DNA from: Candidatus Azambacteria bacterium
GTDB lineage: Bacteria; Patescibacteriota; Minisyncoccia; UBA10092
Reading direction: 5' to 3'
Assembly (NCBI GenBank): GCA_016213445.1
Contig: JACRAJ010000001.1
Span: forward strand, 78,203 to 142,202
DNA: 64,000 nt
Shown here one piece after another: positions 3,580-57,080 of this stretch. The stretch's first letter is position 1, and the number at the start of each line of letters is the position of its first letter. The notes beneath the pieces were generated by a model, which saw nothing but the letters and a program-made list of their open reading frames with translations, did not search any database and had not been told where the DNA came from. A program made the position numbers and the translations under genes.

Positions 3580-4641
3580 CTAAAGATTCGCCTGTAATTC
3601 TTTGGGATTTAATGAATAAGCCAGGGCTGTTTCCGGCGCCACTTCGCCGCGGCGAACTAATTCGGCCAAACTGCGATTTAAAGAAATCATGCCGCTTTCA
3701 AGGGACGTTTCAATCACCAGGTCGATTTGATGAGTTTTATCCTCGCGAATCAGGTTGGAAACCGCATTATTCGCAAACATTATTTCAGCAGCCGGAATGC
3801 GGCCTCCCCGCAAACGGGGCAAAAGCCGCTGTGAAATCACCGCCGAAATGGTGTTTGCCAATTGAAATCTGATTTGATTCTGCTGATTTGGGGGAAAAAC
3901 ATCAATAATCCGGTCAATCGTTTGGCTGGCGCTGTTGGTATGCAGCGAAGAAAACACCAAATGGCCGGTTTCGGCCGCCGTGAGAGCGGCGGCGATAGTT
4001 TCCGGATCGCGCATCTCGCCGATCATAATCACATTAGGATCTTCTCGAAGAATCGAACTTAACGCATTATAAAAGCTTTTGGTGTCATTGCCAACTTCCC
4101 TTTGATTAACCAGAGATTTGTCGCCGACAAATAAATATTCAATAGGATCTTCAATGGCAATGATATGTTCGGCCCTCGAATGGTTGATTTCGTCGACGAT
4201 CGCGGCCAGCGTCGTCGATTTGCCGTGCCCCGACGGCCCCGTTAACATTACAAATCCCTGTTCCAACTTGGAAAGCTTGTGAAGCGCCGTCGGCAAATTG
4301 AGTTCTTCCACAGTCCTGATATTCGGAAGAATTAATCTCAAGGCGCTGCTTACAAATCCTTTTTCAAAGAAAACATTTACGCGAAAACGAGCTTTATCTT
4401 TGAAGGTGTATGAAAAATCAATTTCCTTTCTTTCAATGAAATTTTCTTTTCTGTCCCCCAAAATCTGATAAGCTAATTCTTCGGCATGCTGGGGAGTTAA
4501 AATGGAAAAATCATCAAGCGGCAAAAGAATACCGTCGACTCTAACGGTCGGCTTATAGCCAACGCTTAAATGCAAATCCGAAGCGTTGAGCTTTAACGTG
4601 CTTAAAAACAAATCTTCTAATTCTTGTTGGATGGTTGGCAT
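3580..4641 (-). CDS. pilT: twitching-motility retraction ATPase
   Basis: 353 aa. Walker A GPSGHGKST, IEDPIEY and GEMRD motifs, and no N-terminal GspE-N domain. Confidence 0.9.
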   Translation of the reverse strand: MPTIQQELEDLFLSTLKLNASDLHLSVGYKPTVRVDGILLPLDDFSILTPQHAEELAYQILGDRKENFIERKEIDFSYTFKDKARFRVNVFFEKGFVSSALRLILPNIRTVEELNLPTALHKLSKLEQGFVMLTGPSGHGKSTTLAAIVDEINHSRAEHIIAIEDPIEYLFVGDKSLVNQREVGNDTKSFYNALSSILREDPNVIMIGEMRDPETIAAALTAAETGHLVFSSLHTNSASQTIDRIIDVFPPNQQNQIRFQLANTISAVISQRLLPRLRGGRIPAAEIMFANNAVSNLIREDKTHQIDLVIETSLESGMISLNRSLAELVRRGEVAPETALAYSLNPKELQANL

Positions 4642-29563: not shown

Positions 29564-29657
29564 ATAAAGATATTACCAAAAACCTCCAGTTTTAGCGAGA
29601 GGTTTTGGGTTTGTCCTTGTCCCAAAAGATGACAATCCTCGGCACCTCGAAAAATAA

Positions 29658-29703
29658 AGCCACCAAAAACTCCGTCATTATTGCGACGGAGTTTTTGGTG
29701 GCT
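29658..29703 (-). terminator. 19-bp perfect hairpin; on the minus strand it is followed by UUAUUUUU
   Basis: agccaccaaaaactccgtc-attattgc-gacggagtttttggtggct. Lies 190 nt downstream of the ndk stop. Confidence 0.65.
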
Positions 29704-29892
29704 CGGAGAAGCTGTTTTAAAGATAATTTTGGCAATTTGCCAGGTGGGTGTCTTCAGCTTTCGATCCGCAGACCGAAGCGATATCAGACTCCCGAATAAA
29801 ATTATTCAGGCCAAAATCTTGTAAAACAACTTCCGCAGCCACTTATATTTTAACGCATTTGAAAATTAAAATATAACAAGTTAATCCACAGC

Positions 29893-53912: not shown

Positions 53913-53994
53913 GGTGTTTGAATCGTAGCACAAAACTTATCCACAGAAAAATTTGACGTTGGGTTTTCTTTATTCAATCATACAAACAACATAT

Positions 53995-55659
53995 ATGGTT
54001 TTTAAGGGGGAACAAAAAGAAGAGGAGTTTTTGGCCAAAGTCCGGCGCGAAGAAGAAGAAAATCGGGCAAAAATTTTGGCGGAAAAAACGGGCCTGCCGT
54101 ATCTCAACTTGGCTTTTATTCCGATTGAAAGCGACGCTTTAAAATTGATACCGAAAGAAACGGCCGAAAAATCCAAAATCGCCGCAATAAACCGCGAAGC
54201 CAAAATCCTCCACCTTGCCGCCGTAAACCCGGATGACAAAGAAACGCAATCCGCGATCGGCGAGCTGGAAAAATCGGGATATGCCGTAAAAATATTTGTC
54301 GTTTCGGAAAGCGGTTTGAAAAAAGCGCTTTCTTTTTATCCGCCGGCCGCCGAAACCAAAGAAATAACAGGGCAAGTTGAAATTTCAAACACAACGCTGT
54401 CAGAATTAAAAAAAGAAATAGCCGACATTAAAACTTTGCAAAAAGTTTTGGAGAATTTGTTCGAAGCCAAAGCGTCGCAAATAGTCGAGGCGGCGCTGGC
54501 CGGCGCCTTAATTCTTAAAGCTTCCGACATTCATTTTGAGCCCGAGGAGGGCAAAACCCGTATTCGCCTGCGCCTCGACGGCCTTTTGGAAGACATAACT
54601 TTCATACCTGAACCGGCTTATTTTCTGTTGCTCAACAGGATAAAACTTCTTTCGGGGTTAAAATTGAATATTCATGAAAAAGCCCAAGACGGCCGGTTCA
54701 GCATTTCTAGCGATAACAATGAAATAGAAATAAGGACTTCCGTTTTGCCGGGCGCGTACGGCGAAAATATCGTGATGAGGGTTTTAAATCCGAGCGCGAT
54801 AAAAATCGGCCTTGAAAATTTGGGAATAAGGGAAGACGATTTGGAAATCATCAACCAGGAACTTAAAAAGCCGACCGGAATGATACTCACCACCGGGCCG
54901 ACCGGTTCGGGAAAAACCACCACGCTCTACGCTTTCATTAAAAAAATTCTTGCTCCGGACATTAAAATTATTACCATTGAAGATCCGATTGAATACCATA
55001 TCGAAGGCGTGTCCCAAACTCAAGTGGAACCGGATAAGGGCTATACTTTCGAAAACGGGCTAAGATCGATAGTGCGCCAAGACCCCGATGTCATTTTGGT
55101 CGGGGAAATCCGCGACTACGAAACGGCGGAAATCGCCATGCACGCCGCCTTGACCGGCCACTTGGTTTTTTCAACGCTTCACACCAACGACTCCATCGGC
55201 GCCATTCCGCGATTGATTGATTTGGGCGTCAAGCCGCCGGTTATCGCGCCGGCCATTAATCTTTTAATGGCCCAACGGCTTTTGCGCCGGGTTTGCCCGA
55301 AATGCGCCAAAAAAAGGCCTATAACCGCCGAAGAACTGGAAAATTTTAAAAAAATACTGAAAGATTTGCCGCCGAGAGTGAAATTGGAAAAAGAATTAAA
55401 TGAAAAAATTCAAATATTGGAACCCCGAGGCTGTAAAGAATGCCACAACGGCTATTCCGGCCGAGTTGCCGTAATGGAACTTTTAAAAATCGACGACGAA
55501 ATGGAAGATTTGATTTTAAAATCGCCGACCGAAATCCAAATTAAAACCGCCGCCGTAAAATCGGGATTTGTCAGCATGGCGCAAGACGCGACCATTAAAA
55601 TAATAACCGGAATCACCACCATTGAAGAATCGGAAAGAGTTTTGGGTTCTTTTCTTTAA
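53995..55659 (+). CDS. second GspE/PilB-family secretion ATPase (orphan)
   Basis: T2SSE-N-like N-terminus, GPTGSGKTT, GEIRD and CPKC...CKEC. Confidence 0.85.
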   Translation: MVFKGEQKEEEFLAKVRREEEENRAKILAEKTGLPYLNLAFIPIESDALKLIPKETAEKSKIAAINREAKILHLAAVNPDDKETQSAIGELEKSGYAVKIFVVSESGLKKALSFYPPAAETKEITGQVEISNTTLSELKKEIADIKTLQKVLENLFEAKASQIVEAALAGALILKASDIHFEPEEGKTRIRLRLDGLLEDITFIPEPAYFLLLNRIKLLSGLKLNIHEKAQDGRFSISSDNNEIEIRTSVLPGAYGENIVMRVLNPSAIKIGLENLGIREDDLEIINQELKKPTGMILTTGPTGSGKTTTLYAFIKKILAPDIKIITIEDPIEYHIEGVSQTQVEPDKGYTFENGLRSIVRQDPDVILVGEIRDYETAEIAMHAALTGHLVFSTLHTNDSIGAIPRLIDLGVKPPVIAPAINLLMAQRLLRRVCPKCAKKRPITAEELENFKKILKDLPPRVKLEKELNEKIQILEPRGCKECHNGYSGRVAVMELLKIDDEMEDLILKSPTEIQIKTAAVKSGFVSMAQDATIKIITGITTIEESERVLGSFL

Positions 55660-55690
55660 AAACAATATAAATAATTTTACGAAGCTTATG

Positions 55691-55738
55691 AAAGCGTTTT
55701 GGCATGGTCTTCGCATAGCGGAGCAAAACGCTTTTATC
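55691..55738 (+). terminator. 11-bp stem hairpin with a U-run after the ATPase gene
   Basis: aaagcgttttg...caaaacgcttt followed by ttat. Confidence 0.5.
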
Positions 55739-55813
55739 GGACAGCGAGAATTGCCGCTGGGCAATCGAGCGCGCGAGGAAAATTATTTATATTGGTTTTA
55801 AAGAGTAGACAGG

Positions 55814-55976
55814 GTTCTTAATAATCTCGAGGCAATAATCCTTCAAGCCAGCTTGAAGGGATAGGGCCGATTTGTGAAATGGCCCAGTCGGAACCAAGCC
55901 ACCCAAGCAAAGAAAGTCCCCGAAAAGGCCGAGTAGTGAAATATTTGACCTTTATTGCCTCGAGGTTGTTAAGAAC
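55814..55976 (+). ncRNA. 163-nt structured RNA candidate: 25-bp closing helix with two G-U wobbles plus internal hairpins; class unknown
   Basis: gttcttaataatctcgaggcaataa pairs with ttattgcctcgaggttgttaagaac. The two non-Watson-Crick positions are U-G on the plus strand and C-A on the minus strand. Inner hairpins: ccttcaag/cttgaagg and gggcc/ggccc. Confidence 0.55.
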
Positions 55977-56039
55977 GACGCTTTGCCAAGCGTCTCCGCG
56001 ATTATACTAAAAAATTATAGATTTGTCAATCCAAATAAA

Positions 56040-57080
56040 ATGGAAGATTTAAACTCAAAATTATCCGCCAAAGGCGGATCCGCCTTTGGCGGAAAGCCCG
56101 AAGACCGAACTCTCGACCAAGCTTTAAGGCCGCACATTTGGGATGAATATATCGGCCAGGAAAAAACCAAAACCAACCTCAAAATTCTTCTGGAAGCCGC
56201 CAAAAAACGCTCGGAACCGATCGATCACCTGCTTTTATACGGCCCGGCCGGCTTAGGCAAGACCACCTTGGCGTATATTATGGCGCGGGAAATGAACGCC
56301 AACATGAAAATCACCTCCGGCCCGGCAATAGAAAAAGTGGGCGATCTGGCTTCTATTCTAACAAATCTCAACAGCGGCGACGTGCTTTTTATCGATGAAG
56401 CCCATCGGTTGAATAAAACCGTTGAAGAAATCCTTTATCCGGCGATGGAAAACCGAATGCTTCATATTATCATAGGAAAAGGGCCGTCGGCCAGAACCTT
56501 GCAGCTTGATTTGCCGCCGTTTTCCTTAATCGCGGCAACCACCCGCGTCGGTTTATTGTCGAACCCCCTCCGCTCCCGATTCGGCGCCACTTTCCGGTTG
56601 GATTTTTACAGCATGGAAGACATAGAAAATATCTTAAAAAGATCGGCCGGGCTTATGGATTTGCAAACCGAACCGGAGGCGCTGAAAGAAATAGCCGCCT
56701 CATCGAGGTTTACCCCCCGCGTCGCCAACCGCCTGTTAAAGCGAGTGCGCGACTATGCCGAGGTTGAAGGCGATGGAATTATAAATAAAGAAATCGCCGA
56801 AAAAGCCTTGGCGCTTTTGGAAGTCGATCATTTGGGGCTGGAATCAACCGACCGCCGATTAATTGAGGTTATTATTAAAAAATTCAACGGCGGGCCGGTG
56901 GGCCTTCAGGCTTTGGCCGCCGCCGCTTCCGAAGAATTGGACACTATCGAAGACATAAACGAACCGTATCTTCTTCAAATCGGTTTTCTGCGGCGCACGC
57001 CCCGCGGCCGCATCGCCACCAAATTCGCCTATGAACATCTTGGCTTCAAGCCGCCCGCCGAAAATCAGAGCTTGCTTTAA
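56040..57080 (+). CDS. ruvB: Holliday junction helicase RuvB
   Basis: [24 protein letters not shown] and a sensor region. Start set at MEDLNSK. Confidence 0.95.
56064..56093. repeat. perfect 30-nt double-hairpin palindrome, in frame at ruvB codons 9-18
   Basis: tccgccaaaggcggatccgcctttggcgga is its own reverse complement and encodes [10 protein letters not shown]. Confidence 0.9.

Follow-up and report, generated by a model that had tools for sequence, protein, structure and literature searches.

The 64-kb window analysed here, a stretch of DNA from Candidatus Azambacteria bacterium, contains two plus-strand genes that are separated by a structured spacer, one encoding a PilB/GspE-type ATPase and the other encoding RuvB. 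The spacer carries a small RNA gene on the minus strand, for which the ATPase gene is the convergent and ruvB the divergent neighbour. The features of the locus are as follows, the arms of P1 being named in the sense of the RNA.

53953..55659, plus strand: PilB/GspE-type ATPase gene (start codon uncertain), convergent neighbour; Pfam T2SSE (7.8e-113) and MshEN
55688-55737: terminator-like hairpin of the ATPase gene
55814..55838, minus strand: 3' arm of the closing helix P1
55840..55859, minus strand: P4, a hairpin of 8 bp, CCUUCAAG-cugg-CUUGAAGG
55863..55921, minus strand: P3, a long irregular hairpin
55878-55903, minus strand: apical 11-bp stem of P3, with five G-U pairs including a family-conserved run
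55889-55892, minus strand: UCCG loop of P3
55925..55952, minus strand: P2, a hairpin of AAGGUC / GGCCUU with a 16-nt loop
55952..55976, minus strand: 5' arm of the closing helix P1, its inner end GGCAAU kept family-wide
55977..55994, minus strand: putative 5' leader hairpin of 7 bp with the RNA loop GGCA, beginning at the predicted 5' end
56001..56006, minus strand: -10 hexamer TATAAT of the RNA promoter
56024..56029, minus strand: -35 hexamer TTGACA of the RNA promoter
56040..57080, plus strand: ruvB, divergent neighbour; Pfam RuvB_N, AAA_lid_4 and RuvB_C

The element is bounded by two inverted-repeat arms of 25 nt each (55814-55838 and 55952-55976), which are complementary at 23 of the 25 positions. 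The two exceptions, T55822-G55968 and T55825-G55965, are both T-G when read on the plus strand, exactly as an earlier sequence-only reading of this DNA had described a 25-bp closing helix. The same reading had reported an 8-bp hairpin, a 7-bp hairpin and a terminator-like hairpin of the ATPase gene; these are found as CCTTCAAG/CTTGAAGG at 55840-55859, as GACGCTT-tgcc-AAGCGTC at 55977-55994, and at 55688-55737, respectively. Folded as a 189-nt stretch, the element reaches a minimum free energy (MFE) of -78.1 kcal/mol on the plus strand (z = -7.0 against dinucleotide shuffles) and -75.0 kcal/mol on the minus strand (z = -5.9), and none of the 200 shuffles folded as well on either strand. The small ORFs that overlap the spacer, 40-59 aa long, were rejected as coding sequence because close homologs differ by frame-breaking indels of 1, 2, 4 and 5 nt, so the spacer is non-coding.

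Several further palindromic features were observed around the RNA gene. A 31-nt AT-rich inverted repeat (55648-55678 and 55779-55809, 90% complementary) flanks the stop codon of the ATPase gene and the hairpin at 55688-55737, and together with this hairpin it makes up a second large hairpin adjoining the RNA gene. A small hairpin at 55751-55767 (AATTGCC-gctg-GGCAATC), which lies downstream of P1 on the RNA strand, echoes the AUUGCC/GGCAAU motif at the inner end of P1; the related loci L002 and L005, in which the ATPase ORF ends within P1, have no space for a hairpin of this type. A perfect 30-bp palindrome (TCCGCCAAAGGCGGA/TCCGCCTTTGGCGGA) occupies positions 56064-56093, within the first ~18 codons of ruvB, and gives a G+C-rich hairpin at the start of the mRNA. 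Locus L001 has a near-identical palindrome at the same position of ruvB, and relatives whose RuvB match begins at residue 19 apparently lack the N-terminal extension that bears it.

In searches with BLASTN and nhmmer, eight close relatives proved to have the element immediately before ruvB, with an identity of ~80%. Their alignment combines invariant blocks, compensatory changes and frame-breaking indels, which together identify a conserved non-coding element; homologs with compensatory changes, which the sequence-only reading had proposed to seek with these programs, therefore exist. Of 80 Parcubacteria loci, about 35 gave a minus-strand match immediately before ruvB with a covariance model built from the close homologs, and a profile HMM of 33 aligned members located the element at the same place and in the same orientation in 74. 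The six loci without an HMM match include two truncated contigs and two loci, one of them titled candidate division NC10, in which a ruvA-sized ORF immediately precedes ruvB. The record titles of the loci, which were retrieved through RuvB, name Azambacteria, Giovannonibacteria, Sungiibacteriota, Zambryskibacteria, Taylorbacteria, Vogelbacteria and Colwellbacteria, in addition to generic Paceibacterota. In the same retrieval, the window itself fell within Candidatus Azambacteria, a part of Parcubacteria.

Since retrieval through RuvB is biased towards ruvB loci, metagenome contigs were also sampled from the RNA side, by a search with a 22-nt apical-hairpin motif. In total, 63 of the 97 stretches obtained in this way are family members, with a divergent ruvB wherever the length of the contig allows and usually a convergent pilB-type gene on the opposite side. 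The gene order is pilB-type ATPase (plus), RNA (minus) and ruvB (plus), and most loci have an ORF of about 555-570 aa at the ATPase position. The supposed association with ruvB or with the ATPase gene thus holds for both. More than 130 genomes or contigs carry the RNA, one copy per locus, at this fixed syntenic site; complete Parcubacteria genomes with the RNA include OZ244961.1 and OY970358.1. A phage association was rejected: the viral contigs held at least 120 stretches with two short RNA motifs, 80 of these were tested with the covariance model, and none matched among 770 kb of unrelated viral DNA containing the motifs, which served as a negative control, so that the viral pattern matches are put down to chance. 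Within the window, the model also gave a weak match at 29657-29723 on the minus strand (19 bits, E about 0.01-0.03), which is probably due to chance as well.

The RNA gene lies on the minus strand, opposite to the plus strand chosen by the sequence-only reading. A sigma-70 promoter, TTGACA-17-TATAAT, lies on the minus strand at 56029-56001; it agrees with the consensus at 12 of 12 positions and is aimed leftward into the element. Both hexamers and the spacing between them are kept in the eight close relatives, while the sequence of the spacer drifts. Among 75 family members, an upstream promoter match of at least 10/12 is present on the RNA strand in 49 and on the opposite strand in none.

Folding and base-pair composition gave the same strand. 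The MFE is better on the minus strand in 27 of 33 homologs, by a mean of 10.6 kcal/mol (Wilcoxon p = 9e-7, the homologs not being independent of one another). RNAalifold applied to seven close homologs yielded -66.3 kcal/mol with a favourable covariation term on the minus strand, compared to -55.0 kcal/mol with an unfavourable one on the plus strand. Read in the minus sense, the 33-member alignment has 260 G-U cells against 58 A-C cells, a ratio of 4.5 to 1. In the window, the apical P3 stem has five G-U pairs on the minus strand that turn into five A-C mismatches on the plus strand, and the 11-bp apical stem with its UCCG/UUCG loop is workable only on the minus strand. The motif YYGGUUYCGRCUGG occurs 32 times on the minus strand and 7 times on the plus strand of the ruvB loci, and the placements of the covariance model score 184-206 bits on the minus strand, compared to 35-50 bits on the plus strand.

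The window itself is among the six exceptions of the 33 homologs (-68.8 kcal/mol on the plus strand versus -64.3 kcal/mol on the minus strand), and a reading of this single sequence therefore pointed to the wrong strand. Comparison with relatives showed that the T55822-G55968 position is T-A in them, and that the T55825-G55965 position, in the minus sense, is C-A in the group of the window only and U-A, C-G or U-G elsewhere. The two plus-strand G-U pairs of the window are lineage quirks. The G-U pairs of one sequence were misleading as to the strand, and comparison across the family was needed. A structured RNA on the plus strand, such as an element in the leader or the intergenic part of a pilB-ruvB transcript with a regulatory effect on ruvB in cis, could draw on the plus orientation of both flanking genes, on the two P1 positions of the window that pair as T-G only on that strand, on the slightly better plus-strand MFE of the window and on a weak match of locus L051 to the Moco riboswitch. 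A cis leader or riboswitch of ruvB would share the strand of the gene, however, and the promoter, the G-U pairs, the fold energies and the model scores all favour the opposite strand. The Moco match lies far under its threshold, and we regard a plus-strand RNA as highly improbable.

The predicted fold of the minus-strand RNA is a compact four-way junction formed by P1-P4, and this architecture is supported by covariation. Compensatory changes occur at 18 of 24 pairs in P1, at five of six pairs in P2, where 98% of the cells are paired, and at seven of eight pairs in P4. The family consensus at P1 is AAAUCUCUAGGCAAU...AUUGCUUAGAGAUUU. At the tip of P3, most lineages have AGGACG..CUGGUUYCGRCUGG..UAUCCU, comprising tandem G-U pairs and a UNCG-type loop (family consensus AGGACG..CUGGUUcCGACUGG..CUAUCCU), and the tandem U-G/G-U pairs are almost never replaced by Watson-Crick pairs. 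In nine diverse members, whose alignment was fitted to the model, 91% of the cells are paired, compared to 71% after column shuffles and 36-52% with slid partners, and changes on both sides are seen at 44 of 58 pairs; none of 500 shuffles matched the observed values. A MAFFT alignment of 15 members, made from the sequences with no structural model, showed P1 and the P3 tip to covary likewise. When 118 members were folded independently, 88 of the MFE folds had three branches inside P1, with branch lengths of about 26, 55 and 21 nt, a median P1 of 25 bp and a median of 9 unpaired junction nucleotides. The earlier claim that the spacer harbours a structured RNA is upheld by these both-side changes and by the plus-strand z-score of -7.0. 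Its additional 5-bp hairpin with a 12-nt loop can form locally, but covariation in the family does not favour it, and its bases belong to P3 on the minus strand.

The architecture is not uniform across the family. A large subgroup consisting of L051, L059, L060, L068, L070, L079 and L080 (element at ~3670-3900 in most of them) lacks P2 and has two 3'-side hairpins, with P3 stacked directly on P1 and a 12-nt 5' internal loop, UCUAAAAACUAC. In L006 (element at 3760-3937), a close relative, the P1 3' arm is lost: a ~95-nt deletion takes the spacer and this arm and leaves the promoter, the 5' arm and P2-P4 unchanged. Since the rest of the RNA is kept, P1 may not be strictly required. The RNA also contains a direct repeat of 81% identity (55860-55880 and 55922-55942), in which AUUUCACnAnUCGGCCyUnUC appears twice in the minus sense, with one copy on P3 in its 3' side and the other in the loop and 3' strand of P2. 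In relatives, some substitutions are common to both copies of this repeat.

The near-perfect 25-bp terminal inverted repeats also suit a palindrome acting at the level of DNA, or a miniature transposable element, and dispersed identical copies had been named as the sign of the latter. The arm sequence has no second copy anywhere in the 64-kb window, and across the family the element is confined to its single fixed site in each locus. Moreover, the arms vary by compensatory substitution around a conserved interior, and the viral contigs have no match. Copy number and covariation together refute this reading, to which we assign a practically negligible probability. Altogether, the homologs share a conserved architecture, compensatory changes, strand and synteny, and they define an RNA family across the Parcubacteria (Paceibacteria).

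The ends of the transcript can be predicted from these features. With the usual spacing of ~7 nt between the -10 hexamer and the start site, transcription is predicted to begin at ~55993-55995. The predicted start at ~55995 coincides with the base of the 7-bp hairpin, which would accordingly be the 5' leader stem-loop of the RNA; this hairpin is retained with altered sequence in L005, L002 and L001 (GACTTTG..CAAAGTC). The 3' end is predicted to lie at or past the P1 3' arm (55814..55838). Within the 10 nt after P1, 24 of 117 members have at least six U on the RNA strand, compared to six of 117 on the opposite strand, and the copy in the window has no clear U-tail at this position.

We propose, with a probability of roughly 0.55, that the locus encodes a member of a new small RNA family, a stable molecule that is transcribed independently, binds protein and acts in trans. 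The minus-strand gene would produce an RNA of about 185 nt, of which the 163-nt element is the core, from the sigma-70 promoter at 56029-56001 with a predicted start at about 55995. The RNA would open with the short leader hairpin and then fold into the compact four-way junction, in which P1, a helix of about 25 bp, would hold the 5' and 3' portions of the molecule together. P1 and the U-rich tail may double as a terminator in some lineages. The folded product would be a stable structural RNA that serves in trans as a ribonucleoprotein scaffold or as a decoy. With only ~9 nucleotides of the junction unpaired, and with the conserved bases located in helices, the apical loop and the junction, binding to a protein in trans seems the most likely mode of action, ahead of regulation by base pairing or a role as a cis leader.

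Alternatively, the nearly invariant position beside ruvB may point to a local role in cis. A strongly transcribed antisense gene with a long hairpin might insulate or tune pilB and ruvB, through head-on transcription, through promoter competition at the start of ruvB, or through pairing with read-through RNA from pilB to ruvB. Order and orientation are almost invariant throughout the class, whether the loci were sampled from ruvB or from the RNA. The distances are short as well: the ATG of ruvB in the window lies 11 nt past the -35 hexamer of the RNA promoter, and P1 is separated from RuvB codon 25 by a median of about 130 nt, which leaves little room for a separate ruvB promoter. On the other side, the ATPase ORF terminates inside P1 in L002, L005 and L063. 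A pure antisense RNA or insulator, however, has no need of internal helices with compensatory changes, nor of invariant tandem G-U pairs, a UNCG loop and conserved junction bases, and the ATPase gene of the window has a terminator hairpin of its own. Housekeeping RNAs often keep fixed neighbours, which also counts against a local role, and we consider such a role doubtful.

The Parcubacteria form a very large radiation of uncultured bacteria whose genomes are reduced and contain little non-coding DNA, and the presence of a ~170-nt structured RNA with a consensus promoter at one locus class-wide in such genomes suggests that it is likely to have an important role. A bolder and rather unlikely reading is that the RNA is a missing subunit or regulator of a Parcubacterial core process, either a remodelled 6S analogue or an undescribed ribonucleoprotein scaffold. 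If this were true, genomes of roughly 0.6-1 Mb would have kept the RNA, and it might be coupled to the flanking genes for DNA uptake (pilB) and recombination (ruvB). The RNA bears on whether Parcubacteria possess any 6S-type regulator, and it offers a concrete target for metatranscriptome mapping, pull-down and RNA polymerase binding assays.

In kind, this is an ordinary bacterial small RNA gene; its identity is new. At gathering thresholds, no Rfam 15 family matches the element in the whole window and 27 related loci, in accordance with the earlier failure to assign it to a known class. The matches that pass these thresholds are tRNAs and one unrelated LOOT RNA (RF03000, 71.8 bits), which lies at 2926-3048 of contig L231, ~7 kb from that contig's copy of the pilB-ruvB RNA; at least one small RNA family in Rfam thus has a match on a Parcubacterial contig, and this family is distinct from the one described here. 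Five diverse members searched at E below 10 gave chance matches, with no 6S, SRP, RNase P or Y RNA among them. The best match to a known aptamer in these five members is the plus-strand Moco-riboswitch match, which was obtained for L051 only (13.7 bits against a cut-off of 36, E = 0.78). ARAGORN detected no tRNA- or tmRNA-like domain in the RNA, and a tRNA or tmRNA identity was rejected as neither ARAGORN nor Rfam returned one. Two short likenesses on the plus strand were also discarded: an RNase P CR-I-like stretch, GAAAGUCC, is limited to the group of the window, stands on the wrong strand and has no RNase P match, and an SRP-like GGAA loop has flanking bases that are unable to form the loops of SRP helix 8. 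A literature search on 6S or non-coding RNA in CPR, Patescibacteria or Parcubacteria, or near ruvB, found no description of this RNA, and the main text of Weinberg et al. 2017 mentions neither ruvB nor Parcubacteria.

Among known RNAs, 6S RNA (ssrS; RF00013 and related families) invites the closest comparison. It is a rod in which a central bubble, for the most part unstructured, separates the closing stem from the apical one, and B. subtilis 6S-1 has a closing stem, an apical stem and a 3'-side hairpin (PMC8876501). As a Parcubacterial 6S counterpart, the RNA would bind the housekeeping sigma-RNA polymerase holoenzyme as a mimic of an open promoter; by analogy, P1 would correspond to the closing (downstream) stem, P3 to the apical stem, and P2 and P4 to hairpins in the 5' and 3' halves of the central bubble. 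The likeness extends to a stand-alone RNA of ~160-200 nt (here about 165-185 nt) with a strong sigma-70 promoter, to 5' and 3' ends joined in a long closing stem, to an irregular apical stem and a central hairpin on the 3' side as in 6S-1 (PMC8876501), and to a single copy broadly conserved within the lineage, here a class with reduced genomes. In addition, about 340 kb of Parcubacteria sequence scanned around ruvB contained no canonical 6S. There are, however, clear differences between the two. The Rfam 6S models have no match in the five diverse members even at E below 10, and the expected bubble is occupied by covarying P2, basal P3 and P4 in a tight four-way junction, although the MFE folds and the covariation are compatible with a 6S-like state that opens when polymerase is bound. 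P2 ends in a tetraloop in many lineages and would there offer no open template strand. The sole likeness noted by eye to the 5' bubble of E. coli 6S (comparison sequence of ssrS verified at 100%) is one 8-mer in the P2 loop of the window, AUAUUUCA; it was dismissed as chance, for close relatives do not share it and ~0.5 matches of this kind would arise at random. In the present family, sequence is conserved at the apical hairpin and at the inner end of P1, an unusual feature by the standard of 6S. We therefore consider a 6S counterpart unlikely.

The protein-binding scaffold that we favour has a general parallel in the bacterial Y RNAs. Y RNAs of the YrlA type are protein-binding scaffolds in which a long stem closes the 5' and 3' ends beneath a multi-branched module, and the present RNA has the same layout of a long end-closing stem with a multi-branched module above it. 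They differ in that the present RNA has no Rfam match to Y RNA or YrlA, no T-arm-like 7-nt loop, nothing tRNA-like by ARAGORN and no adjoining rsr (Ro) gene. A second parallel is provided by raiA-motif RNA (ModT) and LOOT RNA, orphan structured small RNAs that were recognised by covariation before their function. Like them, the Parcubacterial RNA is lineage-wide, independently transcribed and highly structured; unlike them, it has an unrelated sequence and fold that matches neither model, and it keeps a fixed position between pilB and ruvB.
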